Shown in pieces: positions 472 through 26,646 of a stretch of 53,246 bases of DNA. Source of the DNA: a virus. Location: the IMG/VR virus record IMGVR_UViG_3300043622_000001, positions 1 through 53,246 of that record; one strand, written 5' to 3'. The notes below the pieces were generated by a model that was not told the DNA's origin, searched no databases, and was given only the letters and a program-made list of their open reading frames with translations. The position numbers and the translations under genes were made by a program. The first letter of the stretch is position 1; each line of letters starts with the position of its first letter.

Positions 472-777
472 TCACGCCGCCGAGTCCTCGGGCGTCGGCG
501 GGTCCATCAGGCTGTCGATGACGGGATCGACCGGATACGCGTGGAGGTGATCGCGGATGCGGATCAGCACGTCGCCCGTCGGGCAGTAGCCGGGCCGCTT
601 GAAGATGTCCGTGACCGTCGAGGGCGAGAGCCGGGCAGGCTCCTTCATCAGGCTCGAACGGTTCAGGCCGCGGCGCTTGAGCTGGTACTCCAGCCGTTCG
701 GGGCTGAAGCCACCAGGCCGGGGGAGAGTTCGTGGCTGCGTCATGAGTATTGGGTAATTCTGCCTCATCTTCGACAC
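472..777 (-). CDS. Cro/CI-type HTH DNA-binding protein (candidate Cro-like early regulator)
   Basis: ORF track, 101 aa. HTH-like segment 'LNRSSLMKEPARLSPSTVTDIFKRPG'. Divergent from the XRE gene at 847. The start is ambiguous (GTG 777, ATG 768 or ATG 744). Confidence 0.7.
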   Translation of the reverse strand: MSKMRQNYPILMTQPRTLPRPGGFSPERLEYQLKRRGLNRSSLMKEPARLSPSTVTDIFKRPGYCPTGDVLIRIRDHLHAYPVDPVIDSLMDPPTPEDSAA

Positions 778-2695: not shown

Positions 2696-2771
2696 CTCCC
2701 GTAATCCAGCCAAAGCTCCTCTTGTTACGCCGCCAGCCCGGAGCGGGGCTTGCGGTCGGTCATGACAGGGA

Positions 2772-3392
2772 CTACCTCCTGATGGTGGCCGCCGACGGGG
2801 TGCCGGCGGCGCGAGGGTCGAGAATCCGGCGGGCGCGCTCCACGAGACGCGGAGGCGCGTAGTCCGCGGGCCTGACGTCCAGCCGCCCGGCGGGGCTCAG
2901 CGTCAGGCGCACGATCGGCCGGAAGCCGGCGTTGGCGTGCGCGGCCTGGCTGGGCTCGTTGTCGTCGAGGATGCCGTTCCACATGACGGCGCGGCCTTCG
3001 CGGGCCAGCTGCCAGCCGGCGCAGCGCAGAAGCCTGGGAGCCAGCCCGAGCCCGCGGTACTCCGGGACCGTGCCCACGTCCCAGCCGTGCACCTCGTCGG
3101 CGGCGAAGAAGAGCGGGCGCCCGAGCGGCCAGGCGTACTCGACGCCGGCGGACACCCAGAGCCAGGAGACGACCTCGCGCTGGCGGGTGACCACCCATGC
3201 CCGGCAGCCGCGGGCGAAGCGGCCGGCGACCTCGGCCTCGGTGGTCCTCATCGCGCGGGCCAGCGAGCGGACCTCGCGGACCTCGTCGGCGACGTACGCG
3301 CCGCACGCCTCCGGCCGCTGGACGCGGGCCAGGTCGAGCGCCCAGAGGGCGGCGTGGACGCGCTGCGGCTCGACGTGGGCCAGGGCTGTCAC
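2772..3392 (-). CDS. GNAT-family N-acetyltransferase
   Basis: 'VPEYRGLGLAPRLLRCAGWQLA' is the acetyl-CoA motif A (R-G-x-G-x-A). C-terminal 'AAHANAGFRP'. GTG 3392 overlaps the upstream stop (GTGA). Confidence 0.8.
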   Translation of the reverse strand: MTALAHVEPQRVHAALWALDLARVQRPEACGAYVADEVREVRSLARAMRTTEAEVAGRFARGCRAWVVTRQREVVSWLWVSAGVEYAWPLGRPLFFAADEVHGWDVGTVPEYRGLGLAPRLLRCAGWQLAREGRAVMWNGILDDNEPSQAAHANAGFRPIVRLTLSPAGRLDVRPADYAPPRLVERARRILDPRAAGTPSAATIRR

Positions 3393-3586
3393 GCCGGCAC
3401 CACGTGAATCGACAGGCCATCGACCACGTCGGCCCACTCCGCCCAGTCCACGCCAGGCCAGTTCGTTCCGAACCAGTCCTGGCCCAGGCGCTCGACGACG
3501 ACCGCCATCGCTCCCTCGGCGCAGTCACCCGGCGTGTCCGCCACGATGGTGGCGCCGATCAGCTCCCTCGCGTAGGCCCAGGCCAT
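3389..3586 (-). CDS. Hypothetical protein (65 aa, acidic, Trp-rich)
   Basis: ATG at 3586 overlaps the upstream stop (ATGA). 'MAWAYARELIGATIVADTPGDCAEG...'. Below or near the ORF-track cutoff within ORF 3389..3829. Confidence 0.55.
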   Translation of the reverse strand: MAWAYARELIGATIVADTPGDCAEGAMAVVVERLGQDWFGTNWPGVDWAEWADVVDGLSIHVVPA

Positions 3587-3894
3587 CACGCCGCCCTCCG
3601 CTCCAGCTCGGCGACCCGCCGCTCCAGCCTGACGACCTTCGGGTCCGGGCGGCCAGCACGCCACCAGCCGATGGCGAGCGCCGTGAGCGTGACCGGGACG
3701 ATCAGCGCAGGCAGCGCCCATTCGCCGTCGACGAGGCCCATCACGACGAGCCAGAGCTGGCTGACGGCGAGGCACACGCTGCCGGCGCGGCGCCGGTCGA
3801 AGGCCAGCAGCAGCAGGTAGCCCGACCACACCCAGGGCACGGCGGCCAGCGACGGCCAGGACGTCCGGATGGCCTCGGGCAGCAGCGGGTCCAT
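3586..3894 (-). CDS. Small integral membrane protein (102 aa)
   Basis: ORF track. Three hydrophobic segments followed by a charged helix 'RLERRVAELERRAA'. Confidence 0.65.
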   Translation of the reverse strand: MDPLLPEAIRTSWPSLAAVPWVWSGYLLLLAFDRRRAGSVCLAVSQLWLVVMGLVDGEWALPALIVPVTLTALAIGWWRAGRPDPKVVRLERRVAELERRAA

Positions 3895-3897
3895 GAC

Positions 3898-4341
3898 CTA
3901 CGGCCGCTCCGGCCAGAAGTGCTCGATGACGCCGTGCCCGATGAAGTACCCGGCCATGTTGCCGACCAGGACGATCGCGCCCGCGCTGGTCACCGTGCCG
4001 TGCAGGGTCGCGCCGTCGGGTCCGAGGGTCGGCTGGAACGTCACCCAGCCGAGGACCATCAGGGCGGTCAGCGCGGCGACGTCGATCGCGCTGTGGGCGT
4101 AGCGCACCACGAATGCACGGCGCCGGGACTCCAGGGGCTCCTCCTCCTCGATCAGCCGTTGCGTGCAGGGTCGGCAGAGCAGGGCTCCGGAGGCCACGTC
4201 ACGGAACGCGATCGGGCCGCCGCAGTGATCGCAGGGCTGGACCCACTCGCACGACTGGCACAGGGTGTCGTCCGGCAGCGCGGCGCACTCCGGGCACGGG
4301 CCCTCCTCGATCGGGTCGAGGTAGGTGTTCAGCGTCTCCAT
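3898..4341 (-). CDS. Cys-rich (zinc-ribbon-like) membrane protein (147 aa)
   Basis: ATG 4341 overlaps the translocase stop (ATGA). 'CPEC...CQSC...CDHC...CRPC' is followed by three hydrophobic segments. Confidence 0.65.
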   Translation of the reverse strand: METLNTYLDPIEEGPCPECAALPDDTLCQSCEWVQPCDHCGGPIAFRDVASGALLCRPCTQRLIEEEEPLESRRRAFVVRYAHSAIDVAALTALMVLGWVTFQPTLGPDGATLHGTVTSAGAIVLVGNMAGYFIGHGVIEHFWPERP

Positions 4342-6335
4342 CAGGAACTCCTCATCGCAACCACGGAAGGGATACCGGCCCGCCGCCACCGCGCACGCGC
4401 CACCCTGACTGCCTTGCCAGCGTCCCGCAGGCCCTCGAGCTTCTTGGCAACCCACGAGTCGCTCATCCCCGTCATCCGAACCAGCTCCGCACGCTCAACC
4501 CCCTCTTCAGGGGCCGCGTCGAGCAGCTCGAGCAGGCGGTCCAGCGGATCCAGGCGGGTAGCCGGATCCACGAGGTGCAGTGCAGGCCGGCCTGGCTCGG
4601 CAGCCGTGGTGGGCTCCGCAGGTGGCGGCAGCGGCCGGACGGAGAGGTTGCCCTCGGTGGCAACCCCCTCGTCCAGCGGCCGGGAGCCACGAGCGGCGGC
4701 GGCCAGGGCGGCGACCTCGGCCACCTTGGCGTCGTCGACCCAGTAGGTCTGCCAGCGGTCGGGCGAGTCGTAGACGCCCTGCCAGCGGACGTAGGCGAGG
4801 CCGGGCCGGTCGAGCAGATCGGTCCTCCAGCCGGCGCGCTTGGCGCCGTCGCCGAAGGACAACTCCTCGTCACCGGGGAGCATGTAGTACGAGACCGTGA
4901 GGCCGAGCTGCGACTTGGCGTCACCGGTCTGCCCGGAGCCGCCGGTCTTGGCCGCCGAGGCGCGCTGCGTGCAGAGGAGGAACCAGATCCCGGTGGCGCG
5001 CGCCTGCGCCAGCAGCACGTCGAGCAGATCCTTCGCCTTCGTCGGCAGCACGCCCCACTCGTCGACCACGAAGATGACCAGCGGCTCCGCGGCGGACGGA
5101 ACCCAGAAGCGCCGGCCTGCCGCGCGCAGGACGCCCCAGCGCCGCTTCATCTCCGCGGTCGCGCGCTCCAGCAGGACGATGGCCTCGTCGCCATCGATGG
5201 CCAGCTCGCGGAAGAGGGTCGCCCAGGGTGACAACTCGATCCCGCCCTTGGCGTCGACTCCCCAGTGCTCGACCTCGGCCAGCAGGGCCGTCTCAGCCAG
5301 CAGGCAGTTGACGAAGGACCCCTTGCCCCAGCCGGTCTGTCCGGTGACCTGGACGTGTGGCGCGAGCCGGCCGTCCTTGGGGTTGATGAGCGGCAGCAGC
5401 ACCGGCCGCCGGCCGCTGAACTCGCCGAGCCGGACGGGATCGGTCACCCGCCGCGGCGGCTTCGCCGGCCAGGGCAGCATCGCGGGCGGCGGCGCCATCT
5501 CGGCCACCGAACGGAACTCCAGCACGACCTCGTGGGCCAGCCCTTCGTCGGCTCGCTTGGGCCGCAGCGATCCCGGCCGCAGTCGCCACTCGGTCTCCAG
5601 CGCGCCGACGACCAGGCGGACGTCGTCGAGGGTCTTGCCCGAGCCCAACTCCAGGCGGACCCAGGCCGGGCCCGAGGGGTTCCAGTGGGCACCCACGAGG
5701 GCGCTGTTCGGCAGGTTGACTTGACGCATGCGCGACGTCCACGGCCACCTCTTCCCCATCCGCCCGAACTGCCGCGCCGCCCGGAGCTGGAGCCGGAGCG
5801 CCGACCGCAACTCCCTCGCGTACGCGCGCGTGACGCGCGCGCGAGGCCAGTCGATCGTCGGCAGCCGCCGGAGCCGCCGGTAGACGGCCCAGACCATCGC
5901 GAAGAGGGGAGCCCCAGCGGCCAGCGGCACGTCCAGCTCGGGGCGGTAGGGGCCGAGCTGCCAGGCCAGCGAGAGCCAGGCCACGGCCAGTACGCCCACC
6001 GTCCGGACGTAGCGCCGCTCCAGCATCCGCTCGTAGCGCTGGGTGCCGGTGCGGACCACGAGGGCGGCCATCAGGGAGGCCGCCCACCAGGCGTCGGGGT
6101 TCATGCGGGACCCCAGGAAGGACAGGACCAGGAGGGCGGTCGGCCCGGCCAGCGGGAGCCAGCCAGGGGACCAGAACCGGGCCAGCCCGGGGCCTGGTTC
6201 CGGACCTCCGGCGGCAAACGGTATTCCGGTATCGGTACCGGAGACCCCCGGCCCAAGGCGCGCGCGTGTGACGCCCGCGTACTCGCCCGCGCGCGCGAGG
6301 CTCGAAGCGCTGGTGGTCCGGGTGAAGAGGCCCAT
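4341..6335 (-). CDS. Membrane-anchored FtsK/SpoIIIE-family dsDNA translocase, TraB/Tra-like (conjugative-plasmid/AICE type)
   Basis: 664 aa. N-terminal hydrophobic segments, Walker A 'VTGQTGWGKGS', Walker B 'LVIFVVDEWG', 'LLCTQRAS', and a C-terminal winged-helix-like 'ELVRMTGMSDSWVAKKLEGLRDAGKAV'. Confidence 0.9.
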   Translation of the reverse strand: MGLFTRTTSASSLARAGEYAGVTRARLGPGVSGTDTGIPFAAGGPEPGPGLARFWSPGWLPLAGPTALLVLSFLGSRMNPDAWWAASLMAALVVRTGTQRYERMLERRYVRTVGVLAVAWLSLAWQLGPYRPELDVPLAAGAPLFAMVWAVYRRLRRLPTIDWPRARVTRAYARELRSALRLQLRAARQFGRMGKRWPWTSRMRQVNLPNSALVGAHWNPSGPAWVRLELGSGKTLDDVRLVVGALETEWRLRPGSLRPKRADEGLAHEVVLEFRSVAEMAPPPAMLPWPAKPPRRVTDPVRLGEFSGRRPVLLPLINPKDGRLAPHVQVTGQTGWGKGSFVNCLLAETALLAEVEHWGVDAKGGIELSPWATLFRELAIDGDEAIVLLERATAEMKRRWGVLRAAGRRFWVPSAAEPLVIFVVDEWGVLPTKAKDLLDVLLAQARATGIWFLLCTQRASAAKTGGSGQTGDAKSQLGLTVSYYMLPGDEELSFGDGAKRAGWRTDLLDRPGLAYVRWQGVYDSPDRWQTYWVDDAKVAEVAALAAAARGSRPLDEGVATEGNLSVRPLPPPAEPTTAAEPGRPALHLVDPATRLDPLDRLLELLDAAPEEGVERAELVRMTGMSDSWVAKKLEGLRDAGKAVRVARARWRRAGIPSVVAMRSS

Positions 6336-6345
6336 CAGGTTCCCG

Positions 6346-6729
6346 TCAGCGCCCCGGCTGGGAGGAGGTGTAGGTGGCCCAGAGGTTGCCCAGGTCGGCG
6401 TGGTGCTGGATGCCCCAGGAGAGCAGCGGGACCCCGACGAAGAGGATGACCAGCGCCTTGCCCAGGCCCTTCAGCATGCGGTCGCCGAAGTCGTGCAGGG
6501 GCGGGATGAAGTGGCACAGCCCGCCGGCCGCCAGCACGACCAGGGCGAAGGCGGCGCCCAGGGCCTGTGCGGTGGCGACCGGGTCCACGCCAACGTGCTG
6601 GATGGTGCCAAGGATGGTCGTACGGCCGGTCGGCCCGAGCAGGTAGAGGAGCCCGAACGCCAGGCCGCCGAGGATGATCGAGGCCCAGAACGGGTCCCGC
6701 TTCCAGAGTCCCGTCGCGAACTTATGCAT
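6346..6729 (-). CDS. Polytopic membrane protein (127 aa), Spd-like by context
   Basis: In-frame ATG 6729 (ATGA overlap) within shadow ORF 6346..7350. 'MHKFATGLWKRDPFWASIILGGLAFGLLYLLG...' has about 4 hydrophobic segments. Confidence 0.65.
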   Translation of the reverse strand: MHKFATGLWKRDPFWASIILGGLAFGLLYLLGPTGRTTILGTIQHVGVDPVATAQALGAAFALVVLAAGGLCHFIPPLHDFGDRMLKGLGKALVILFVGVPLLSWGIQHHADLGNLWATYTSSQPGR

Positions 6730-6980
6730 CAGAAAGACCTCCTGTTGAACCGGGCGACGAGGGCACGGACGGCCCAGGCGCCCCAGATGGCGGCCATCCA
6801 GAGGACGGCGATGACGAGGACGATCGGGATGCCGATGCACTTCCCGAGGAAGTCGGCGACCCGCTGCTGCTCCGGCCGCAGGACCGGCAGGTCGATGACC
6901 TCGGCGATCCCGTCGAGGATCAGCACGTGGTCGTCGTCGCCCTCCTCGGGCAGCTGGCCGGCGTAGTGGACGCCGCGCAT
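6729..6980 (-). CDS. Small membrane protein (83 aa)
   Basis: ORF track. Acidic N-terminus and a C-terminal TM 'IGIPIVLVIAVLWMAAIWGAWAV'. Confidence 0.6.
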   Translation of the reverse strand: MRGVHYAGQLPEEGDDDHVLILDGIAEVIDLPVLRPEQQRVADFLGKCIGIPIVLVIAVLWMAAIWGAWAVRALVARFNRRSF

Positions 6981-7456
6981 CAGGCCACCAGGTAGGAGCC
7001 GAAGGCCCCGGAGTTGTAGGTGGACCAGGCGTTCCAGTTCCGCCCGTAGTTCGAGATCCGGGCCGCGGCGCGCGCGGCGCAGCCCAGCTCCATCGCGCAG
7101 GCCGGCGAGACGTCCGGGTGCGCGAGCACGTTGATCTGCCAGGGTCCGTAGGACTGCTCCGGCGCCTGGCCGGGGACGCAGTTCGTAGGGCAGAGGTGGA
7201 CGGCATCCGAACGCCCGCCCGACTCGGCGCGAGCGATGGCGGCTCCGACCGGCGCGGCGGCCGGCGGCACCCCGGCGGCCTCAAGCGCGCCGACCAGCTC
7301 GGCGTAGCTGTAGACGACGCCCGGCCCGGACGAGTACAGGCGGACGTCACCCTGGCTGCGGAGCGCGTTGCAGCCGATCTGCACGACCAGCAGGAACGCG
7401 ATCACCTTCCAGTGCCGGAGGCAGAAGCTGATGACGGCGAGGGAGTCGGCGATCAC
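6980..7456 (-). CDS. Membrane-anchored lytic transglycosylase (SLT/lysozyme-like)
   Basis: N-terminal TM, then 'AIARAESGGRSDAV' (catalytic E-S) and 'YGPWQINVL', 'WSTYNSGAY-like' motifs of SLT domains. GTG start overlaps the upstream stop. Confidence 0.75.
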   Translation of the reverse strand: MIADSLAVISFCLRHWKVIAFLLVVQIGCNALRSQGDVRLYSSGPGVVYSYAELVGALEAAGVPPAAAPVGAAIARAESGGRSDAVHLCPTNCVPGQAPEQSYGPWQINVLAHPDVSPACAMELGCAARAAARISNYGRNWNAWSTYNSGAFGSYLVA

Positions 7457-7536
7457 CGGGACGCCCTCTCGACGGCGCGGTCCACGGCCCAGGCGATCAC
7501 GAGGGCGATGCAGCCGAAGACGATCAGGCCGGTCAC
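7453..7536 (-). CDS. Tiny single-TM peptide (27 aa)
   Basis: Not in the ORF track as such. GTG 7536 overlaps the upstream stop (GTGA). 'VTGLIVFGCIALVIAWAVDRAVERASR'. Confidence 0.35.
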   Translation of the reverse strand: MTGLIVFGCIALVIAWAVDRAVERASR

Positions 7537-7625
7537 CGCAGCACCCTCCCGGAGATCACCGAGCCGGCCGCCCAGATGAGGAGCGGGGCGGCGATCGCGA
7601 GCACGACGACGAGCGCGAGGGTCAT
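7533..7625 (-). CDS. Tiny single-TM peptide (30 aa)
   Basis: ATG 7625 overlaps the upstream stop (ATGA). 'MTLALVVVLAIAAPLLIWAAGSVISGRVLR'. Confidence 0.4.
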   Translation of the reverse strand: MTLALVVVLAIAAPLLIWAAGSVISGRVLR

Positions 7626-8569
7626 GCCGCCACCTCCGGGCCAGGGGTGAGTGCGATCGCCGGCGGCGACTCGCTCGCAATCTGCTTGCGAGCCGCGGTG
7701 AGAGCGCGCTTCGCGGCGTGCTCGCCGAGCCCGGTGGCGGCCGCGACCTTGTTCCAGTCGCCGCCGGCTCGCGCGATACGCAGGGCCTTGGGGTCGATGC
7801 GCTTCGTCCGTCCGTTGCGCAGCCCGGCCTCGGGAGGCTGCGATTCGTCGTGCGAGTCGACCGCCGCCTCCGCCGCGTCGTCCGCGCCCGAGACGTTCGC
7901 AGCCTCGCGCAGCTCCTCCAGCCGAGCGCGCTCGCGAAGGACCAGCTCGGTGACCGCGACCGCGAGGATGATCCCGATCCCGGGCACCATGGCCGCGATC
8001 AGGCGAACCCAGACGTCGGCGCGCGCGAGGTCGAGCAGCGAGAGGTCCAGATAGGGCTCGCCGTAGGTTGGCACCACAAGCGCACCGTGGAGCGCGTTGC
8101 CCGCGAGCGAGAGCGGCGCCGTCACGACGGTCACTGCGAACAGGCGCCACCGACGGGTGGCTGGCGACTTCCAGCGCGCGAGCAGGAACTGGCCGATCAC
8201 CGAGCACGTCAGCGGCGCGTCGAGCGCGACCGGCACCACGTGCGCAGGGCCGAAGGCGTAGCCCACGGCCATGAGCACGCCGACGAGGTTCCCGTAGGAG
8301 CCGTAGTAGCTCGACGCCAGCGTAGCCACGACGAGGAGCCACACGGTGGCCTCCAGCCAGTTGACCAGCGGCCAGTCGAGAGCGCGCCGCGACCAGCGCT
8401 CGCGCTCGCGCTGCGTTCGCCGCCGCCACGCGCCGATCCGATCGCCGAGCGAGGTGCCGGAGGGCCGCGGCGGCTTCGCGGGTCCGCTCGCGAGTTCCTT
8501 CGCAGGCTCGCTCGCGGTCGGTTCGTTCGCTGTTCGCATCCGCGATCGCAGGAGGCTCGCAAGTCGCAT
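7622..8569 (-). CDS. DUF2637-like membrane protein with a C-terminal HTH-like tail (first gene of the transfer-like operon)
   Basis: Start taken at ATG 8569 within ORF 7622..8692. Four hydrophobic segments with 'GPAHVVPVALDAPL', reminiscent of DUF2637 proteins that accompany FtsK-like genes in actinobacterial mobile elements. C-terminal 'GGDWNKVAAATGLGEHAAKRALTAARK'. Confidence 0.55.
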   Translation of the reverse strand: MRLASLLRSRMRTANEPTASEPAKELASGPAKPPRPSGTSLGDRIGAWRRRTQRERERWSRRALDWPLVNWLEATVWLLVVATLASSYYGSYGNLVGVLMAVGYAFGPAHVVPVALDAPLTCSVIGQFLLARWKSPATRRWRLFAVTVVTAPLSLAGNALHGALVVPTYGEPYLDLSLLDLARADVWVRLIAAMVPGIGIILAVAVTELVLRERARLEELREAANVSGADDAAEAAVDSHDESQPPEAGLRNGRTKRIDPKALRIARAGGDWNKVAAATGLGEHAAKRALTAARKQIASESPPAIALTPGPEVAA

Positions 8570-8651
8570 GGGCGCACATACTACACGATCTGGCGCACTT
8601 TGGCGCGTTAGATGGTATGGTTGGCGCGAAGTGCATGTACGATGCGCCCCA
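8570..8651. promoter_or_regulatory. Divergent control region with reiterated GGCGC(A/G)C boxes
   Basis: GGCGCAC at 8571 and 8592, GGCGCG at 8602 and 8623, and an inverted GGCGCA at 8643-8648. TANNNT boxes TATGGT (8616) and TACGAT (8638). Confidence 0.45.
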
Positions 8652-9335
8652 GTGCCGACGATCAAGTCCCTGGACGAAGCGGCGGAGATCACCGGGGTCC
8701 CGCGCCGAACCCTTCAGAGGTGGCTCAACGAGGGCAAGCTGACCCCTTGGACGATCGAGGGCGACCGGCGGCGCTTCGTGGACACCGACGAGATCAAGCT
8801 CCTACGGGAGCCGAAGCCAGCGCCCCGACCCGCCAAGGACCCGATCCCCCCGAAGCCGGTGGCCGCGGCGCGGACGCCCGGCCAGCGGCCGATGAGCGGT
8901 CCCGTCCACCCGCCGGTCGCGATGGCCGTCATCGTCCAGGCCGGCAAGGTGCTCATGACTCGACGTCGGTTCACGATCGACGTCGTAGGGGTTGGGCCGA
9001 CTCAGCTCTGGTCCTTCTGCTCCGGCGAGGTCGAGGTTGACGAGACGCCTGAGGCGGCGGCCATCCGCGAGACGGCCGAAGAGGTCGCGCTCGTGGTCCG
9101 CGCCGTGGACCGCATCGGCGAGCAGATCCACCCCAAGAGCCCAGACAAGCGCCTGTTCGTCTATGTCGCCTGCGAGGTGATCGCTGGCACGCCCCAGGTC
9201 ATCGACCACGAGGAACTGACCGAGTGGCGCTGGTGCACGCTGGAGGAGGCCGACGAGCTGGTGGCGATCATCGGCGGGTTCTACGGGCCCGTCCACGAGT
9301 ACCTGGAGCGCACGCTGGCGGGGGAGCGGACGTGA
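8652..9335 (+). CDS. MerR/excisionase-type HTH fused to a Nudix hydrolase (Pif-like)
   Basis: GTG 8652 within ORF 8346..9335 (alternative GTG 8631). N-terminal 'LDEAAEITGVPRRTLQRWLNEGKL'. Nudix box 'GEVEVDETPEAAAIRETAEEVAL'. Confidence 0.85.
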   Translation: MPTIKSLDEAAEITGVPRRTLQRWLNEGKLTPWTIEGDRRRFVDTDEIKLLREPKPAPRPAKDPIPPKPVAAARTPGQRPMSGPVHPPVAMAVIVQAGKVLMTRRRFTIDVVGVGPTQLWSFCSGEVEVDETPEAAAIRETAEEVALVVRAVDRIGEQIHPKSPDKRLFVYVACEVIAGTPQVIDHEELTEWRWCTLEEADELVAIIGGFYGPVHEYLERTLAGERT

Positions 9336-9919
9336 CCGCGCCGACCGACGAGCGAGCCGGCCTCTACCGGCTCTACGACGAGCACGACTTCCTGCTGTAC
9401 GTCGGCGTCAGCCTCTCGACCTTCCGCCGCCTGTCCGAGCACGCCCAGGGGAAGGGCTGGTGGCAGCAGGTGCGGAAGATCACGCTGGAACCTCAGTCCA
9501 GCAGGGCCGGCGCTCTCGCGGCAGAGGCGCGGGCCATCCTGGAGGAGTGCCCTCTCTACAACATCGCCGGCCAGCCCCTCGGGTTCGCGCCCGACGAGGA
9601 GTTGCCGCTCGCGGCTCCCGTTCTCGATCTCACTGGCTTGGCTCCGACCGACCTCGGCCAGGTCGCCTCCAGAGCCGCCGCAGGGTACGAGCGCCTCGGC
9701 TACTTCATCCTGCCGGCCTATCTGGTGATGAGCTGCATCGCCGCCTACGTCAACGGCGGGTCGCGGCAGGCTGCGCGAGACTGGATCGCAGGGGCCGTCC
9801 TCGTAGATGAGGTGGTCATGGGCATCGCGGCGGCGCTGGCCGTGGCCATGCTCATCTGGGTCCTCACGAAATGGCGGGCCGCGCGCAATGCCTCATTCGT
9901 CGAGGCGGTGGCGCCGTGA
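9332..9919 (+). CDS. GIY-YIG-type nuclease domain with two C-terminal transmembrane segments
   Basis: GTG 9332 overlaps the Nudix stop (GTGA). 'GLYRLYDEHDFLLYVGVS...RRLSEH...EARAILEECPLYN' fits GIY-(9-11)-YIG with conserved R, E and N. C-terminus has 'YFILPAYLVMSCIAAYV' and 'VVMGIAAALAVAMLIWVL'. Confidence 0.65.
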   Translation: MTAPTDERAGLYRLYDEHDFLLYVGVSLSTFRRLSEHAQGKGWWQQVRKITLEPQSSRAGALAAEARAILEECPLYNIAGQPLGFAPDEELPLAAPVLDLTGLAPTDLGQVASRAAAGYERLGYFILPAYLVMSCIAAYVNGGSRQAARDWIAGAVLVDEVVMGIAAALAVAMLIWVLTKWRAARNASFVEAVAP

Positions 9920-10080
9920 CCCGCCTCGCCCTGGAGCCCCTCTGGGTCGTCGTCGTGGTCCTATCGGGGCCGGTGGTCACGGCCACGCTGGCCGTGCTGC
10001 TGCACCTCACCGGCCGCCGGCTGAAGCGCCAAATCGACCTCCTTGCCGAGTACCTGCGGGAGTCGGAGACGCGAACGTGA
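9916..10080 (+). CDS. Small single-TM protein (54 aa), paralog of 10693..10938
   Basis: GTGA overlap. 'EPLWVVVVVLSGPVVTATLAVLLHLTGRRLKRQIDLLAEY' aligns with the product of 10693..10938. Confidence 0.55.
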   Translation: MTRLALEPLWVVVVVLSGPVVTATLAVLLHLTGRRLKRQIDLLAEYLRESETRT

Positions 10081-10307
10081 GCGACCTCATCGTCATCCGC
10101 TCCCGCTTCGAGGACCGCCTGCGGCGCATCAACGCCGATCTCCCGGTCGGTGCCACGGAGATCGGGGAGCTGTACACGATCCTGTACAACCATCGCCACG
10201 AGATCGCGGACATCGTCGCGGCGGCGCGCGAGCACTGGAGCGAGGGCGGCGACAGCGCCCGGTTGGCCAAGCAGGCGACTGACACGCTCCGGCGGCTGGA
10301 CTCGTGA
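10077..10307 (+). CDS. Hypothetical protein (76 aa)
   Basis: GTGA overlap at both ends. 'VSDLIVIRSRFEDRLRRINADLPVGATEIGELYTILYNHRHE'. Confidence 0.55.
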   Translation: MSDLIVIRSRFEDRLRRINADLPVGATEIGELYTILYNHRHEIADIVAAAREHWSEGGDSARLAKQATDTLRRLDS

Positions 10308-10693
10308 CCCTCTTCAGCGGTCCCGAGTACGCCTCGTACATCGCCCTCTGCCGCGAGCTGCGGCTGGAGCGGGATTTGCAGGAGGGCGATTGGTACTTCC
10401 ATGAGTCCCTTCGGCCCGATCAGGAAGAGGGCTGGGTACTGCTGGCCGCTGGCGACGAGCGCGCCGAGAGCTTCGAGGTCTGGCTCCCGCGCCTCGACCA
10501 GTGGCTCGCGATGCTGGAGGAGGCCGGAGCCGACTGCCCGGAGTTCGACCGCGAAACAACCACTGGTCACTACGTCCTCCGGCGTGGCATGCCCGACGAA
10601 TGGGGCCACAGTCAGTACGGAACCGGTCAAACCCGCGAGGAGGCCGCCGCCCGTCTCTGGAGGGCCGTGACCGGACGGACGGGGCCGGCGTAG
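10304..10693 (+). CDS. Hypothetical protein (129 aa)
   Basis: ORF track. Coupled start (GTGA). Acidic, soluble-looking. Confidence 0.6.
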   Translation: MTLFSGPEYASYIALCRELRLERDLQEGDWYFHESLRPDQEEGWVLLAAGDERAESFEVWLPRLDQWLAMLEEAGADCPEFDRETTTGHYVLRRGMPDEWGHSQYGTGQTREEAAARLWRAVTGRTGPA

Positions 10694-10938
10694 TGGAACC
10701 CCTCTGGGTCGACGTCGTGATCCTGTCCGGACTCCTGGCCGTGGCCGTGGCGCTCCTGGCTGTGCTGCTGAACCTGGCCGGTCGGCGGCTGCTGCGCTTG
10801 GAGCAGCGGCATGAACGCCTGGTCGCGATCGTGACGGCGCACCTCTCCGAGTGGCACTACGTCAGCTCGATGCCCGAGGCTCAGGCCGCCGACCAGCGCC
10901 AGATCGACCTCCTCGCCGCCTACAACCGCGAGGAGTAG
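10693..10938 (+). CDS. Small single-TM protein (81 aa), paralog of 9916..10080 with an internal insertion
   Basis: GTG 10693 overlaps the TAG of the upstream gene. 'EPLWVDVVILSGLLAVAVALLAVLLNLAGRRL...RQIDLLAAY'. Confidence 0.55.
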   Translation: MEPLWVDVVILSGLLAVAVALLAVLLNLAGRRLLRLEQRHERLVAIVTAHLSEWHYVSSMPEAQAADQRQIDLLAAYNREE

Positions 10939-11122
10939 GGCCTCGCTACCGAACGGACGCCCGGTGCCCGGCAGACGGATGCCACCCGCCTTCCTCCGGC
11001 GGCACAACGGCAGGCCGGTGCTCTTGAGGCGCTTGAGCTATGCCGGGCCGGGCGCCCTACGCCGACGCTGAGCCCGATCGTACGGGTTTGTACGGGTGCG
11101 TCCGACCCCGGAAAAGGAGAGA

Positions 11123-11185: not shown

Positions 11186-11338
11186 TCAGTGCAGCCCCAG
11201 GTGCGGGAGGAGTTCGGTGAGAATCCAAGCCGCGAGCCCGAGCGCGATCAGGTTCACGCGGCCGATGGCGGGCACGAACATCGCGACCACGAAGGCCACG
11301 AAGCCGACGAACAGCAGGAGCGGGACGAGGATCGTCAC
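11186..11338 (-). CDS. Small two-TM membrane protein (50 aa), holin-like by position
   Basis: Translated by hand. GTG 11338 overlaps the upstream stop (GTGA). 'VTILVPLLLFVGFVAFVVAMFVPAIGRVNLIALGLAAWILTELLPHLGLH'. Confidence 0.45.
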   Translation of the reverse strand: MTILVPLLLFVGFVAFVVAMFVPAIGRVNLIALGLAAWILTELLPHLGLH

Positions 11339-11682
11339 CGCGCGCGAGCGTGCGCCGGTGCCGGCTGGTTGGGGACCACGAACACGCCGACCGCGGCCAG
11401 TGCGATCACGATGAGCTGCACGATCTCCGAGGTGGTCACCGGCCCGGCCACCAGGAAGCCCACGAGCGCGGTGGCGATGGCCATCAGCGCGGCCACGATC
11501 GCCTTCGAGTAGGCGGCGACACCCTCGGGCAGGTTGGGGACGATGACGACCCCGATCGCGCCGAGGCCGGCGATGGCGATGTTGACCAGCTCGACGCTGG
11601 TCACGTGCCCGTCGGTGACGGCCGCCGCGACCGCCGAGGCGACGGTGGCCAGGACCGCGGCGAGGAACTTGGCGTAGGTCAT
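11335..11682 (-). CDS. Holin-like polytopic membrane protein (115 aa)
   Basis: ATG 11682 is preceded by an AAGGAGG Shine-Dalgarno. About 4 hydrophobic segments. Immediately downstream of the peptidase gene. Confidence 0.6.
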   Translation of the reverse strand: MTYAKFLAAVLATVASAVAAAVTDGHVTSVELVNIAIAGLGAIGVVIVPNLPEGVAAYSKAIVAALMAIATALVGFLVAGPVTTSEIVQLIVIALAAVGVFVVPNQPAPAHARAR

Positions 11683-11693
11683 GAGGTCCTCCT

Positions 11694-12485
11694 TCAGACC
11701 TTGAGGTCGGCGAGCTGCTTCAGGTCGATGCCTTGGGATTTCAGCAGCACGTAGGTGGACAGGCGCATGCGCCCTGACCCGTGGTCGCCCCATTCATCCC
11801 CCCAGGAGTTCCGGAAGCGGATGACGCTGGCGTGCGGGTCGCGGTCGTCCCAGGACTCCAGGGCCTCGACGTAGACCTCGTGCCCACCGGCGACCGGCGT
11901 GTTCACCCAGCCGGGGTCGGAATCCACGAAGCCGTCAGCGTCGGGCTCGAACCACGCCTCCAGCCACGGCGTGCCCATGAGGACGCCGCCGCGCTGGAGC
12001 AGGGTTGCGAAGCCCTGCAGGCTCGTGGCCCAGACGTAGCGTCCGATCAAGCCGGCTGCCTTCAGCGCGCGGGCCACGCCCAGGCCGGAGGAGCCGGTGT
12101 CGTCGGGCGGGTAGGTGCCGGGGAAGCCGTCGTCCACGGTGGCATCCGAGTACAGCTCCACGGCCCACTTCTCGTCGAGTACCGCGTTCCCGCTGAGGGC
12201 GAGGTTGTGGAGCTGGAGCCGGTTCAGGCCCGCGGCGCCGACCAGCGCGGCCGTTGCGTAGGTGCCGGCGTTGCCGGTGCAGGAGCCGAGGTTGCCCTGG
12301 TCGAGCACGGGCAGCGGCGAGTGGTGGTCGGCAGGCCGGATGGAGACGCCGGCCAGAACCTCAAGCTCGCGCTCGATCGCGTAGGCCAGGGAGCGCGCAT
12401 CGAGGGCCAGGTGCCGGCCCAGCCGCTGCCCCTCGTGGACGACCTCCTCGAAGCGGTGCAGCAGGATGCCGTTGGTGACGAGCAT
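11694..12485 (-). CDS. Papain-like (C1 family) cysteine peptidase; candidate endolysin peptidase
   Basis: Catalytic triad context 'QGNLGSCTGNAG' (Cys), 'AGGHEVYV' (His), 'FRNSWGDEWGDHG' (Asn-Ser-Trp). Lies directly upstream of the holin-like genes. Confidence 0.8.
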   Translation of the reverse strand: MLVTNGILLHRFEEVVHEGQRLGRHLALDARSLAYAIERELEVLAGVSIRPADHHSPLPVLDQGNLGSCTGNAGTYATAALVGAAGLNRLQLHNLALSGNAVLDEKWAVELYSDATVDDGFPGTYPPDDTGSSGLGVARALKAAGLIGRYVWATSLQGFATLLQRGGVLMGTPWLEAWFEPDADGFVDSDPGWVNTPVAGGHEVYVEALESWDDRDPHASVIRFRNSWGDEWGDHGSGRMRLSTYVLLKSQGIDLKQLADLKV

Positions 12486-21717: not shown

Positions 21718-22217
21718 TCAGCCTCCGGCCCGGTTCATCGCGGCCTCGGCGTCGAGGAGCGCGAACAGCTGCGCGGGGGTCATTCGGAGGAACTCGGCAT
21801 GGGAGCGGCCGAAGCGGACGGTGGCGAGGTAGTAGTGCTGCGCCCAGGGGAGCCGCTCGTCTCCCCGTCGTCTTTTCCCTCGCGGCCCTTGCGCGGCGGG
21901 ATCGCCTCCTGCCACGCCCCGACGATGGCGGCGTGGTACTCGTTGAGGCGCTCCGGCTCGATCGGCGGCTGGAGACACTCCAGGACTACCTCCGGCGGCA
22001 TGCCGGTGTGGCTCAGGCCCGCCGTCAGGGCCACCCGGATCATCTTCAGCATCCGGCCTCGGTAGCCGTCGTCGAGCGCTTCGGTGAACCCATGGAGGCC
22101 GCCGAACTCCTCCTCGATCTGCTCCAGCGCGGGGTAGTCGAAGACGAGCCGTAGCCGCTCGCCGCCCAGCTCGACGTGGGCGCCGAGGGCCAGCACCCGC
22201 TGAGCCTCGGTGGCCAT
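21718..22217 (-). CDS. Tail assembly chaperone, -1 frameshift extension product (G-T-like)
   Basis: After G_GGA_AAA the -1 frame reads 'GKRRRGDERLPWAQHYYLATVRFGRSHAEFLRMTPAQLFALLDAEAAMNRAGG', matching ORF 21718..21978. It ends 1 nt before the tape measure start. Confidence 0.75.
21780..22217 (-). CDS. Tail assembly chaperone (G-like, 145 aa)
   Basis: ATG 22217 (ATGA overlap with the major tail gene). Contains the slippery heptamer near its 3' end. Confidence 0.8.
   Translation of the reverse strand: MATEAQRVLALGAHVELGGERLRLVFDYPALEQIEEEFGGLHGFTEALDDGYRGRMLKMIRVALTAGLSHTGMPPEVVLECLQPPIEPERLNEYHAAIVGAWQEAIPPRKGREGKDDGETSGSPGRSTTTSPPSASAAPMPSSSE
21873..21879 (-). promoter_or_regulatory. Programmed -1 ribosomal frameshift slippery heptamer G_GGA_AAA
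   Basis: Plus strand ttttccc at 21873-21879. Codon phase checked against both stop codons (21780 and 21718). Confidence 0.75.
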
Positions 22218-22789
22218 CAAGCCACAGCGACGAGCGTCTCGTTGGCCACGTACGTCAGCCAGGCGTTGGCCGGGTTCGAGGCCGGCGTCCCGATCGTCGG
22301 CACGGCCATGAAGTCGAAGGACTGGATGTCGTAGTCCTCCTCCTCCAGGCCCACGGGCATCGAGCCCGGCATCGCCTTCCAGAAGATGATGTGGACGTCG
22401 CCGCCGACGTAGTCGGTCTGCAGGGTCTGGGCCTCCACCTTGGCGAAGGCGGGCAGCGTGGACTGCGAGATGGCCATCGTGACCGTCTGGTTGGGCGTGG
22501 TGCCGGCGTCGGTGGCGAGGGCGTTCGTCAGGGCCGTCCAGATGTCGAAGCTGAAGCGCGCGTACTCCACGGTGCCGCTGATCTCGCTGAGCACGGAGTC
22601 CGCCGAGAGCAGCGTGTTGTCGCCGCGCAGGGTCTTGGTGTCCACCGAGAGCGTGGTCTTGAGGGACTTCACGCCCGGGACGTCCACGGCCGCGGCGTAG
22701 GTCGGCGCCGTGGCCGCCACGTCGGTGCTCAGCTTGTGGATCTTGGCGTCGTTCACGCCGTACTTCTTGGTGGTGTGGCCGAGTGCCAT
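22217..22789 (-). CDS. Major tail protein
   Basis: 190 aa. Position between the tail terminator and chaperones, and an abundant-protein-like composition. Confidence 0.7.
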   Translation of the reverse strand: MALGHTTKKYGVNDAKIHKLSTDVAATAPTYAAAVDVPGVKSLKTTLSVDTKTLRGDNTLLSADSVLSEISGTVEYARFSFDIWTALTNALATDAGTTPNQTVTMAISQSTLPAFAKVEAQTLQTDYVGGDVHIIFWKAMPGSMPVGLEEEDYDIQSFDFMAVPTIGTPASNPANAWLTYVANETLVAVA

Positions 22790-23646: not shown

Positions 23647-23859
23647 ATGCTCGCGCGTTGTGCGGTCATGACATTGATCGTCCTCGGCTTCCTCGCGGCG
23701 GCCATCGCCCAGACACTCCTCATCGGAGGTCTCGTGTCCGGTACGCCCGGCGGACTCCGGTATCTGGCCCTGCTGGTCATGTTCGGAGTCGCGGCCAACG
23801 CCTTCGTCTACATCTGGGCCGATCGCCGGCTGGCTACTGCGCGGCGAACGCCTGCCTGA
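23647..23859 (+). CDS. Opposite-strand small two-TM membrane protein (70 aa; alternative start 23668)
   Basis: In-frame ATGs within ORF 23281..23859. It fills a 208-nt gap in the minus-strand structural operon. 'MTLIVLGFLAAAIAQTLLIGGLVSG...LALLVMFGVAANAFVYIW'. No clear Shine-Dalgarno. Confidence 0.45.
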   Translation: MLARCAVMTLIVLGFLAAAIAQTLLIGGLVSGTPGGLRYLALLVMFGVAANAFVYIWADRRLATARRTPA

Positions 23860-24274
23860 ACTTGCGCAGGGCCGCCGTCCACGCCGGCCGGAAGAAGGGC
23901 CGCGGCCTGGCGCCGGCGACCTGCTCGACCGGATGGCGGAGGCCGCCCGCCAGCACCTGAGCCTTGCGGGGGGTGATGGGCCGGTGGCCGGGGCCGAAGA
24001 CGCCGGTTCCGAACTCGGTCATCATCCAGCGGAAGTGGTTGGTCCTGATCTCGATGAAGTCCCGGCCTCCACTGATACGAAGACTGGCCGCCAGCTCGCG
24101 GTCGTTGCCCAGCCGCCGCTGCATGTCGTGGAAGGCCGACTCCCCGGTCACCTGGATCGCCTTGTTGGCATCGCCATGGAACGCGTCCACGGCATCGTCG
24201 AGGGAGCCCAGGAACTCGGTGTCGTCGAACTCGACGCCGATGGAGCGATGGATGGAGCCGCGGCGGCGGGCCAT
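23834..24274 (-). CDS. HK97 gp10-family head-tail joining (neck) protein
   Basis: 146 aa. 'MMTEFGTGVFGPG' and 'RPFFRPAW' are typical of the HK97 gp10 family. Confidence 0.75.
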   Translation of the reverse strand: MARRRGSIHRSIGVEFDDTEFLGSLDDAVDAFHGDANKAIQVTGESAFHDMQRRLGNDRELAASLRISGGRDFIEIRTNHFRWMMTEFGTGVFGPGHRPITPRKAQVLAGGLRHPVEQVAGARPRPFFRPAWTAALRKFRQAFAAQ

Positions 24275-24624
24275 CAGGCTTCCTCCATGTCCAGCTCCTG
24301 GCAGTCCAGGACCAGCTCGCGGTGCCCCTCCTGGGAGTCCGTCACGGACTGGATGTCGAAGATCCGGGAGCCGTAGAGGAGCCGGTTCCGGGCGGTGATG
24401 CCGCGGCTCCGGTTCTCACCACGGAGCCTGACGCGATGGGTGAGCGTGGTCTGCGCCTGCGCCGCCAGGAGCGCCTCGCGACCCTGGAGCGGCTCGATCG
24501 CCGCCCAGAGCGTGGCCACGGTAGCCCAGGGGGTGCTCGTGCGGCCCTCGGCGTCCGTGCTGGACGTCTGGGCCTGGAGTTGGACTCGGCGGTTGAGGGC
24601 GCCGGCGCGCGGGACCGGGCTCAC
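24274..24624 (-). CDS. Head-tail adaptor (head closure) protein
   Basis: 116 aa. 'RRVQLQ...WATVATLWAAIEPLQGRE...THRVRLR...IFDIQSV' matches the Phage_H_T_join pattern. Confidence 0.75.
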   Translation of the reverse strand: MSPVPRAGALNRRVQLQAQTSSTDAEGRTSTPWATVATLWAAIEPLQGREALLAAQAQTTLTHRVRLRGENRSRGITARNRLLYGSRIFDIQSVTDSQEGHRELVLDCQELDMEEA

Positions 24625-25196
24625 GCCAGCAGTACCGGCGCGTAGTGCTCCATCAGGTCGCGGACGCCGAACTCGACCTCCTTGGAGATCGACCCTGTGA
24701 AGACGGCCTCCCGGTCGGCGTAGTAGTGGGCGACGAGCATGAGGAGGGCCTGTCGGATCTCGTCCGGGACCAGCTCAGGGGTCGTCCAGCCGGCGACGTA
24801 GGTCACCTTGACAGCACCCGGCAGCCAGGCCGTGGTAGGCCAGGCCACTCCGATCCCCGAAGCCAGCCGGGCCGGCTCGCTGTCCTTATCGACCACGTAG
24901 AACGCGGAGCTCCACGTCTGGCTGGCGCCGGCGGCGTCGAGGTAGACGACCGAGGTCACGGACTGGACCGGCGGGCGCAATTCGATCCAGCCGCAGGGGA
25001 ACCCGTCACGGATGAGCACGAGCGTCTGGGTCAGCAGCGCGAGGCCGTAGTGGCGCTCGATGTAGCGGCGCGAGGCCCGGATGGCGTTCTGGATCTGGGC
25101 GTCGGTGTCGCTGACGTCCACCGAGAGATGCGTCTTCGTCTCCGCCAAGCCCAACGGCTCGACGAGCGGACGGACGGACACCAGCGTCGAGGCCAT
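24621..25196 (-). CDS. Head-tail connector protein (gp6-like)
   Basis: 191 aa. N-terminal 'LGLAETKTHLSVDVSDTDAQIQNAIRASRRYIERHYGLALLTQT' is the classical gp6-like connector signature. Confidence 0.75.
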   Translation of the reverse strand: MASTLVSVRPLVEPLGLAETKTHLSVDVSDTDAQIQNAIRASRRYIERHYGLALLTQTLVLIRDGFPCGWIELRPPVQSVTSVVYLDAAGASQTWSSAFYVVDKDSEPARLASGIGVAWPTTAWLPGAVKVTYVAGWTTPELVPDEIRQALLMLVAHYYADREAVFTGSISKEVEFGVRDLMEHYAPVLLA

Positions 25197-26086: not shown

Positions 26087-26646
26087 CGGCTCCCCCAGAG
26101 CTGGAACGAGTAGATCCCGCCGGCCGGGTGTTCGAGCACCTTGTGCAGCTCCGGCGTCCAGCCCGTCGCCTCCAGCATCCGGCCGACCTCCTCGCAGTCC
26201 CAACTCCAGATGTGCTCCGGATTGCCGGCGCCGTTCTCGCCGTCGGGAGTGCTGAGCACCAGCGCCTTCGCTCGCCGTCGGATCTCGCACAGCACCATCT
26301 CCGGGTCGTCGAGGTGCTCGAGCGTCTCCGAGAGGACCCAGAGGTCCACCGCGTCAGGCGCGATGCACTGGATCGTCTCTTCGATACGGCCCTGGTACTC
26401 GTAGCCGGCCGCGTAGTCGCCGAGGATGGCGTGCGCCGCGTGGGTGGCCTGCAGGCTCCGGGCGATGGCCGCGTCGCCGCAGCTCAGGTCCGCCACCGTC
26501 CCGCCCTTGGGCAGGAGCGCCTCGGCCATCCTGATCGTCTGGTCCACGCGGATGATGTGGTCCGCCCAGCGCGTGTGGTCGTGCGGGCGCGGGTAGAGGA
26601 GCAGCATCTCCATCTCGTTCGGCGCTGGACGCAGGCGGACTCGCAT
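26083..26646 (-). CDS. Class I SAM-dependent methyltransferase 1
   Basis: ATG 26646 (ATGA overlap) within ORF 26083..26991. Motif I 'VADLSCGDAAIA', 'LSETLEHLDDPE'. Confidence 0.8.
   Translation of the reverse strand: MRVRLRPAPNEMEMLLLYPRPHDHTRWADHIIRVDQTIRMAEALLPKGGTVADLSCGDAAIARSLQATHAAHAILGDYAAGYEYQGRIEETIQCIAPDAVDLWVLSETLEHLDDPEMVLCEIRRRAKALVLSTPDGENGAGNPEHIWSWDCEEVGRMLEATGWTPELHKVLEHPAGGIYSFQLWGSR

Follow-up and report, generated by a model that had tools for sequence, protein, structure and literature searches.

The virus record IMGVR_UViG_3300043622_000001 of IMG/VR is a 53,246-bp DNA sequence of about 70% GC, and by the window we mean this whole stretch, positions 1 to 53,246. Its ends carry an exact direct repeat of 127 bp (1-127 = 53120-53246), so that the genome, 53,119 bp in length, is either a closed circle or terminally redundant. 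The replicon is, as known here from its genes alone, a complete temperate tailed phage, presumably of a high-GC soil actinomycete, and in the arm between its lysis genes and its integrase lies a block of eleven minus-strand genes, numbered g1 to g11, whose largest product, g7, is a predicted DNA translocase related to the TraB/Tra proteins of the conjugative Streptomyces plasmids pIJ101 and pSVH1 (Table 1). A first-pass annotation, made from the letters and their open reading frames (ORFs), had proposed that this block is a TraB-type module for transfer of double-stranded DNA (dsDNA).

The eleven genes extend from 8569 to 2772, and frame plots of GC content at third codon positions support every one of the frames. 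Five junctions are ATGA overlaps (g1/g2, g4/g5, g5/g6, g7/g8 and g9/g10) and three are GTGA overlaps (g2/g3, g3/g4 and g10/g11), with gaps of 10 nt at g6/g7 and 3 nt at g8/g9, which bears out the earlier description of a single operon of coupled genes. Overlapping stop and start codons have likewise been published for spd/tra operons (PMC4447253). Upstream, the operon diverges from a plus-strand gene across a short intergenic region, in which TTGGCGCG occurs at 8600 and 8621 (a spacing of 21 bp) and, in a third and degenerate copy, at 8590; the exact sequence is found at no other position of the genome. The hexamer TAGTAT, resembling a -10 element, lies 8 nt 5' of the g1 ATG and suggests a leaderless transcript. 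A scan with the sigma-70 consensus found no promoter, and the promoter role of this region is a putative one, read from these features. At the other end of the operon a GC-rich hairpin, GGCCGGGG-GAAA-CCCCGGCC followed by TTTT, is likely to be its terminator; it was passed over by the automated terminator scan, having only 4 T after the stem. Just 3' of the stop codon of g11 there is also a possible twelfth micro-gene (2725-2763, minus strand), a 12-codon ORF, MTDRKPRSGLAA, with AGGAGG 12 nt 5' of its ATG. Its frame is intact in the sister genome L014, despite a 12-nt insertion that brings it to 16 codons.

The 664-residue g7 has a Walker A motif GQTGWGKGS at 332-340 and a Walker B motif VIFVVDEW at 420-427. 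In Pfam it matches FtsK_SpoIIIE (PF01580; 25.4 bits, cutoff 24), the same scan recovering no FtsK_4TM, FtsK_alpha or FtsK_gamma, and its single match in NCBIfam is plasmid_TraB (NF041214, E 3.9e-19), with residues 227-549 aligned to positions 150-477 of a model of 639. Across its family, 34 of the 35 proteins (g7 included) match plasmid_TraB, with a best value of 9.8e-59, and 22 of the 35 match FtsK, with a best value of 3e-13. A comparison of the close g7 family with pIJ101 Tra using hhalign gave a probability of 97.4% over 327-644 against 312-631, collinear from the motor through the C-terminal helix-turn-helix (HTH). An exhaustive profile search of 1.84 billion representative proteins returned 103 clusters with E values below 1e-30 and 1,397 below 1e-10, the best matches being mostly proteins of about 600 residues aligned from position ~180 to the C-terminus. 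In a word-indexed protein database, cellular FtsK crowded the output of the profile search, and the intermediate relatives were missed. Against the Protein Data Bank (PDB), the profile of g7 matches FtsK at 1e-13.

The AlphaFold2 model of g7 (pLDDT 82.7) has a disordered stretch at 1-51, four confident helices at 60-157, a long helix at 170-202, an alpha/beta motor at 212-549, a disordered linker at 554-593 and a winged HTH at 597-652. The last consists of helices 597-606, 615-622 and 626-638 and strands 642-646 and 649-652, all with pLDDT >90, and its counterpart in the alignment with pIJ101 Tra is the HTH region of that protein, which itself matches MarR_2. The top PDB matches of the model in Foldseek are the FtsK motor bound to dsDNA (6t8b, 5.7e-17) and TcpA, the conjugative coupling protein of pCW3 (8.4e-17). 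In the source annotation the same gene (P0001, 4341-6101) starts at Met78 and is labelled a 'biotin operon repressor', a name evidently given in error on account of the winged helix at its C-terminus; four relatives share the longer N-terminus (MGLF...).

Phage-encoded motors of the FtsK/SpoIIIE P-loop type, as g7 is, are also known from actinophages and Bacillus phages, such as gp205 of Mycobacterium phage Baka and its counterpart in Mycobacterium phage WXIN. However, these are motor-only proteins of ~430-440 residues, 45-48% identical to cellular FtsK, whereas g7 has additional N- and C-terminal domains, so that it falls outside the phage FtsK-like class (Omegavirus and Herelleviridae type), which is motor-only and close to FtsK. 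Among 50,697 isolated phage records searched by tblastn, g7 found one weak match, in WXIN, with 33% identity over 24% of its length. In a neighbour-joining tree of the motor core, without bootstrap and with long branches, the Baka and WXIN proteins fall with FtsK and away from the clade of the window; a grouping with soluble phage FtsK-like proteins, which would have undone the first-pass proposal, is thus not what this tree gives. The combined profile, structural and tree evidence supports placing g7 in the TraB/Tra branch, and neither with cellular FtsK nor with the FtsK-like proteins of isolated phages. The packaging motor is a different gene, as had been claimed, the separate TerL at 34471-35913 being confirmed by phrog_9 (2.6e-60).

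Adjoining the motor gene are several products that could complete a transfer apparatus. For g1, the DUF2637 label of the first-pass annotation survives in a weakened form: it finds no DUF2637 (PF10935) match in Pfam even at E=10, and hence not at the gathering threshold, and the label rests on transitive homology, since distant homologs at 32-36% identity, namely P0221, P0222 and the L001 protein (26 bits against 22.8), do carry PF10935. DUF2637 is matched by 4 and Sigma70_r3 by 9 of the 22 members of the g1 family. The AlphaFold2 model of g1 has helices at 41-101, 118-132, 137-162 and 184-238, followed by a three-helix HTH at 260-299 with pLDDT of ~96, and two transmembrane (TM) segments exceed the Kyte-Doolittle threshold. 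By analogy, g1 may be a functional counterpart of the DNA-binding Spd membrane proteins. One close homolog of g1 is encoded beside a Prim-Pol and a TraG/TrwB coupling protein, and another beside a VirB4-like ATPase and an M23 peptidase; judged by these genes, both neighbourhoods are contexts of actinobacterial integrative and conjugative elements (ICEs) of the type IV secretion system kind.

The lytic enzyme g4, described earlier as membrane-anchored, is indeed an SLT_3 protein with a TM segment and the motifs AESGG and GPWQIN. In the relative L001 its slot is held by an M23 peptidase, and the presence of two unrelated wall hydrolases in one slot indicates that the module needs cutting of peptidoglycan. 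The first-pass annotation further counted seven small or Cys-rich membrane proteins, of which six (g2, g3, g5, g6, g8 and g9) have TM segments by Kyte-Doolittle hydropathy and the seventh, g10, has none. Six small TM products coupled by ATGA/GTGA overlaps are the pattern of Spd-type genes, the Spd proteins being small, mostly membrane proteins without a conserved sequence signature (PMC4447253). Among these, g2 has a 30-residue counterpart at the corresponding place in L014, g3 is 87% identical there over 23 residues, g6 is retained at 49-97% identity in all relatives, and g10 is 41% identical to a 76-residue L014 protein. The Cys-rich g8 reaches only 0.027 against Zn_ribbon_3; its homologs follow the ATPase gene in L005 and L006, and L014 has no g8. 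As for g11, the GNAT assignment stands above the Pfam cutoff, if weakly, and the protein is 78-80% identical in L014.

The divergent gene that faces the operon, overlooked in the first-pass annotation, is the most AICE-specific of its neighbours, AICEs being the actinomycete integrative and conjugative elements. It encodes a Nudix hydrolase joined to an HTH of excisionase/MerR type, with Pfam matches to NUDIX (4.8e-20), HTH_17 (1.4e-7) and MerR (9.5e-7) and a score of 29.9 bits against TIGR01764 excise (cutoff 28.8). L006 has an XRE-HTH::Nudix in this slot, i.e. a Nudix domain with another class of HTH. Nudix genes are frequent in AICEs, and in one of them, pSAM2, the protein that confers transfer immunity, Pif, belongs to the Nudix family (PMC2440964); an HTH-Nudix gene has also been noted on a Streptomyces ICE (PMC9513070). 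By this analogy the HTH::Nudix protein is a candidate regulator of the operon and/or a Pif-like transfer-immunity factor.

Close homologs of g7 are few, with eight among 5.8 billion clustered proteins. Scans of the IMG/VR and GTDB representative genomes with the single g7 protein and the profile found no relatives, and a scan of JGI metagenomes gave three short contigs only. In the contigs of these relatives (L001-L009) the core order is DUF2637-like protein, micro-proteins, wall hydrolase, a protein of ~80 residues, one of ~127 residues, ATPase and Cys-rich protein. L014 comprises the initial 13.5 kb of the 52,259-bp contig ERR11553390_37370, from an unrelated sequencing run and sample, and over these 13.5 kb it has the same layout on both sides of the block, from the holin side through to the early genes: peptidase, holins, HTH::Nudix (94-95% identity), DUF2637 protein, micro-proteins, SLT_3, 84-residue protein, 127-residue protein (97%), ATPase (93%), 103-residue protein, 76-residue protein, GNAT, convergent integrase (98%), regulators of 56 and 92 residues (96% and 93%) and early genes (58-95%). 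The recurrence of the same junctions in an independent sample argues strongly against an assembly chimera, and indicates that the block is stable in this type of phage.

Within this shared layout the block is mosaic. The body of g1 is only 34% identical to its L014 counterpart at the protein level, though the promoter region and the first ~20 codons are near-identical, and L014 lacks both g8 and the part of the plus-strand block at 9332-10938. Window positions 8500-8700 are ~98% identical to L014 2520-2720 across the intergenic region, itself ~98% identical despite the exchanged g1 body, and the first ~20 g1 codons; the sharp drop in identity inside g1 marks a recombination breakpoint, with a swap of alleles of the DUF2637-like gene. 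By the Nei-Gojobori method the ratio of nonsynonymous to synonymous rates (dN/dS) between the window and L014, at dS of ~0.2, is 0.21 for g7, 0.09 for g6, 0.13 for the HTH::Nudix gene and 0.07 for the integrase int1, as against 0.13-0.24 for two other phage genes and 0.4-0.9 for the smaller module genes, which offer few sites. The core genes of the module are under purifying selection, and 93% identity of g7 with dN/dS of 0.21 speaks against a decaying remnant. The contexts of the relatives vary, L005 continuing into genes that match phage families (phrog_4652, 4.5e-53) and L001 having a Tn3 transposase and a ParA-like gene nearby, so that the module family circulates outside phages too. The block is absent from the 50,697 isolated phage records, and is therefore not common in lytic phages, as it might have been had the first-pass proposal been mistaken.

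The gene order of the window is that of a standard temperate siphovirus, with the eleven-gene block in its lysis-to-integrase arm. Nearly all genes called by codon usage are on the minus strand, and TerL, portal, protease, major head protein, adaptor, major tail protein, lysis, integrase and immunity genes all occur on the one replicon, as is typical of Caudoviricetes. Three products of the late region have 620-640 residues, one of them with weak similarity to tape-measure proteins. TerL is at most ~27% identical to those of isolated phages, which makes this a new lineage.

Table 1. Features of the window (53,246 bp), with coordinates, strand and basis of assignment
Feature	Coordinates	Strand	Basis or remark
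g1, divergent DUF2637-family membrane protein, 315 aa	7622-8569	minus	distant homologs, AlphaFold2, hydropathy
g2, single-TM micro-protein, 30 aa	7533-7625	minus	ATGA overlap with g1, TM segment
g3, single-TM micro-protein, 27 aa	7453-7536	minus	GTGA overlaps on both sides, TM segment
g4, membrane-anchored SLT_3 lysozyme-like peptidoglycan hydrolase	6980-7456	minus	PF18896, 1.3e-15; N-terminal TM segment
g5, single-TM protein, 83 aa	6729-6980	minus	kept in L014, L005, L006, L007/8
g6, protein with three TM segments, 127 aa	6346-6729	minus	always directly 5' of ATPase gene
g7, TraB/Tra-like predicted dsDNA translocase, 664 aa	4341-6335	minus	PF01580, plasmid_TraB, AlphaFold2
g8, Cys-rich N-terminus and TM segment, 147 aa	3898-4341	minus	four CxxC pairs, zinc-ribbon-like
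g9, protein with two TM segments, 102 aa	3586-3894	minus	89% identity in L014
g10, acidic Trp-rich soluble protein, 65 aa	3389-3586	minus	no TM segment
g11, GNAT-type acetyltransferase, last in operon	2772-3392	minus	PF00583, 3.6e-5; 24.5 bits, cutoff 20.7
GC-rich hairpin, likely operon terminator	2676-2695	minus	between g11 and int1; kept in L014
Divergent intergenic region, putative promoter/operator	8570-8651 (82 bp)		between g1 and HTH::Nudix gene
HTH::Nudix gene (excisionase/MerR-type HTH fused to Nudix hydrolase)	8652-9335	plus	divergent from operon
Plus-strand block	8652-10938	plus	between late block and transfer-like operon
int1, tyrosine integrase	1696-2658	plus	PF00589, 3.4e-26; convergent with operon
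Small HTH genes, immunity-type	916-1194 and 472-777		adjoin int1
Hairpin-plus-T terminator	11152-11123		closes late block
Late region	37473 to 11186	minus	codon-usage gene call
Holin-like multi-TM genes	11186-11682		late region
Peptidase-type lysin	11694-12485		late region
Major tail protein	22217-22789		late region
Neck protein	23834-24274		late region
Head-tail adaptor	24621-25196		late region
Major head protein (HK97-type)	30447-31925		late region
Prohead protease	31918-32811		late region
Portal	32826-34229		late region
TerL	34471-35913		phrog_9, 2.6e-60
Early region	53133 to 40091	minus	codon-usage gene call
RecT	45651-46514		early region
YqaJ exonuclease	46501-47424		early region

The block can be compared with three kinds of known systems. 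In the conjugative Streptomyces plasmids pIJ101 and pSVH1, Tra/TraB is, like g7, a single FtsK-fold motor of ~650 residues with an N-terminal helical part and a C-terminal winged HTH (Vogelmann 2011), and its gene is flanked on both sides by small membrane-protein genes in one operon whose stop and start codons overlap. The layout of pSVH1 is traB-spd, and that of pIJ101, korA | tra-spdA-spdB-orf-kilB, is paralleled in the phage by a regulator divergent from a tra-type operon. However, g7 is only ~27% identical to pIJ101 Tra, the phage regulator is an HTH::Nudix protein and not of the GntR type, the phage block adds an SLT_3 hydrolase and a DUF2637/HTH protein, and its replicon is a 53-kb tailed phage. 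With the AICEs (pSAM2, SLP1 and pMEA300 type; te Poele 2008, Ghinet 2011) the phage shares its integrative nature, a tyrosine integrase near a Tra-type translocase, Spd-like genes and a Nudix gene. In contrast to them, the block has no RepSA, RepAM or Prim-Pol in the scanned proteins and no attachment (att) repeats bounding a 9-24-kb element, its Nudix domain is fused to an HTH, and the unit lies within a phage having capsid, tail and lysis genes.

The third comparison is with the Streptomyces plasmid-phage pZL12/phage ZL12 (GQ919031, listed in Caudoviricetes; Zhong et al. 2010, J Bacteriol 192:3747), likewise a tailed-phage genome, whose Tra (pZL12.71c), of FtsK/SpoIIIE type, is encoded next to genes for membrane proteins. 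By hhalign (99% probability, E 2.4e-18) this Tra is remotely homologous to the g7 family, with ~17% identity and no significant pairwise BLASTP match. Conjugal transfer of pZL12 is reported, as cited at second hand in PMC3583192, to need tra and two adjacent genes, and pZL12 has been called a singleton without close relatives (PMC7157519). Unlike the 53-kb integrative phage of the window, pZL12 is extrachromosomal, a ParAB plasmid-prophage of 90 kb that has a GntR regulator, and it lacks the DUF2637/SLT_3/Nudix arrangement. The first-pass annotation had supposed a lifestyle poorly described for Caudoviricetes; in view of the pZL12 precedent, such a lifestyle is rare but already described.

Taken together, these observations lead us to consider the block a complete, selectively maintained module for transfer and spread of dsDNA, of TraB/Spd type, in an integrative temperate siphovirus. 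We hold this with moderate confidence, because we infer every functional step, the DNA substrate, direction and biological role of the module included, by analogy with the plasmid systems. Most likely, the module would transfer the circular dsDNA of the phage itself in a conjugation-like manner and/or spread it within the mycelium. In the scheme that we propose, the C-terminal winged helix of a membrane-anchored TraB-like hexamer would bind the excised or replicating circular phage genome, and the hexamer would pump this unprocessed dsDNA over the envelope to a neighbouring hypha or compartment. The membrane-anchored SLT_3 hydrolase would open the peptidoglycan, and the DUF2637/HTH membrane protein with the six small TM proteins could act as an Spd spreading complex. 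The HTH::Nudix protein may repress the operon and/or confer Pif-like immunity to redundant transfer, and in the recipient the phage genome would establish itself via its own integrase and replication genes. A phage of this kind would have two routes of transmission, by virions and by conjugation-like transfer.

A bolder form of this proposal, which we offer tentatively and regard as possible though rather doubtful, is that this integrative siphovirus lineage of soil actinomycetes consists of 'conjugative prophages', which by means of an AICE-like TraB/Spd apparatus gated by the HTH::Nudix protein pass the whole 53-kb genome as naked dsDNA to neighbouring hyphae. Were this so, new cells could be lysogenised or infected without virions or receptors, with a choice between horizontal routes. 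An active module would also mean that the host range and spread of phages in mycelial bacteria are not bound by receptors or by virion production, that prophages could act as conjugative elements, perhaps mobilising chromosomal DNA as AICEs do, and that the single cultured example, pZL12, is extended to integrative phages. The operon, compact and well delimited with its motor, hydrolase, channel proteins and Nudix switch, offers a handle on TraB-type crossing of the cell wall, and it is at present a solid and testable lead from comparative genomics for virion-independent spread of phages.

Several observations weigh against a TraB/Spd-type transfer module. The score of g7 against plasmid_TraB is 68.6 bits, where the curated equivalog cutoff is 800, making it a distant relative of TraB and not an equivalog. 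The N-terminal helices of g7, taken as TM segments in the first-pass annotation, are confident in the AlphaFold2 model, yet their best Kyte-Doolittle 19-mers score 1.3-1.5, below 1.6 and like a buried segment of the motor; the membrane anchor is thus only probable, while the Walker motifs and the C-terminal winged helix of that description stand. No similarity to SpdA, SpdB or KilB of pIJ101 was detected in the small proteins of the g7 operon, the SpdB alignment giving 16% identity. No GntR-type Kor repressor adjoins the operon, the search being confined to the block and its flanks. The 53-kb phage genome exceeds the size of most AICEs, and mycelial growth of the host is an assumption.

The clustered 8-mer TraB recognition repeats (clt) to which the first-pass annotation had looked were also not identified; a clt acts in cis and consists of clustered direct repeats of 7-9 bp that the winged HTH recognises. 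In the module and its surroundings no 7-9-mers cluster above background, though the recognition sequence of g7 was not known beforehand; across the genome, exact 8-mers reach at most 3 copies per 200 bp, and 8-mers with one mismatch reach 5 copies at four places only, none of them in the module. Outside the module, the best repeat clusters either do not exceed background density or resemble replication iterons. Clustered k-mers common to relatives were examined as well, and the only such candidate, a GTGATCG cluster at 7405-7500, was rejected, all its copies being in-frame Val-Ile codons with strong strand bias. Separately, the minus-strand gene 42568-43518 contains, at 43020-43140, a dense array in which a (GACAGA)5 tandem run is preceded by six half-sites of GAAGCA/TGCTTC, two CGAAGCAGGTGCTTCG palindromes among them. 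These repeats look like replication-origin iterons in an initiator gene, and might still be a TraB recognition locus.

When set against the accepted marks of an AICE, i.e. genes for Int, Tra and Rep together (Ghinet 2011) in a compact element, the block is also incomplete. Int and a Tra-like protein are present, and no RepSA, RepAM or Prim-Pol was found in a scan that covered the proteins of 2772-9919 and of 10304-10693. Nor is there a discrete 9-24-kb element with att borders, usually at a tRNA gene: the longest exact repeats flanking the block are of 13-14 nt, against 14-15 nt in shuffled sequence, so that none is above chance. A tRNA-Tyr of 91 nt called by ARAGORN at 10864-10954 (minus strand) was considered as an att site and set aside as probably spurious, since it runs into a coding sequence, is not supported by Rfam and lacks a second copy. 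Given the low score against the TraB equivalog and the lack of the Rep/att triad and of a GntR Kor gene beside the operon, we describe the block as working like a TraB/Spd system and not as a member of that family. Of the original proposal of a TraB-type module in a tailed phage, the motor family, the operon layout and the phage context stand; no clt locus was identified, and the g7 score falls far short of the TraB cutoff.

Other explanations have to be weighed against transfer of the phage genome by a TraB/Spd-like module. In the foremost of these, the module serves intramycelial spread only, moving replicating phage DNA through hyphal cross-walls in lytic growth or after induction, so that virions are made over more territory, with no cell-to-cell conjugation. 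Spd functions are defined by spread across septal cross-walls (PMC4447253), the module consists mostly of small membrane proteins and a peptidoglycan hydrolase, and its place is immediately behind the lysis cassette, ahead of the lysogeny genes. Yet the late operon is closed by its own terminator at 11152-11123, and a plus-strand block intervenes, so that the module would have its own promoter and not simply belong with the late genes; a Pif-like Nudix protein, moreover, points to discrimination between donor and recipient. We consider confinement to the mycelium unlikely, although this explanation and conjugation-like transfer are inseparable from sequence alone.

Somewhat less probable still is that the block is passenger cargo derived from an AICE, which provides the lysogen with exclusion of or defence against conjugative elements or phages, or mobilises other DNA and not the phage genome. 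Such cargo would be in keeping with the position of the block in a moron-prone stretch between lysis and integrase genes, with the mosaic state of g1, g8 and 9332-10938, with the absence of an identified clt from the phage, and with Pif, a Nudix protein, being an exclusion factor. There are also weak PADLOC matches of the Nudix domain to PDC-S07 (1.4e-14), of the HTH to mad1 and of the P-loop to SspH/mad8 (1e-6 to 1e-7), but these are matches to generic domains, and no known defence-system architecture was matched. An eleven-gene transfer operon with motor, hydrolase and channel-like proteins exceeds the needs of exclusion, and its core genes are under purifying selection.

We regard as quite improbable a nested, independent AICE (int1, module and Nudix gene) moving on its own, or an assembly chimera: a second tyrosine recombinase (int2) in addition to int1, a module GC of 0.72-0.735 as against ~0.70 in the late genes and relatives in non-phage-looking contexts (the ParA-like gene and Tn3 transposase of L001) would fit it, but both junctions recur in the independent contig L014, the flanking direct repeats do not exceed shuffle expectation, the block has no Rep gene and its border tRNA is probably spurious, and int1 occupies the canonical phage position beside the immunity genes, so that a separately integrated AICE is unlikely despite int2.

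Some further features of the window lie outside the transfer-like operon. The second tyrosine recombinase, int2 (39085-40038, plus strand), is 27% identical to int1 and lies between the early and late operons; upstream of it are an 83-residue ORF (38837-39088) and, beyond an unusually AT-rich segment at 38700-38800, a divergent 71-residue ORF (38479-38694). It may be that int2 provides a further integration system, resolves dimers or belongs to an inserted element. The plus-strand block contains two paralogous small single-TM proteins (9916-10080 and 10693-10938), with 77-79% nucleotide identity over segments of 38-53 nt, and a GIY-YIG-like/TM protein at 9332-9919, the entire 9332-10938 being the segment missing from L014. 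Between the genes for the major head protein and the head-tail adaptor, a glycosylation-type cassette (25196-29825) encodes three glycosyltransferase-like proteins, a methyltransferase-like protein and a nucleotide-sugar epimerase (phrog matches of 1e-15 to 1e-52), and may thus serve to modify the virion or the host surface.

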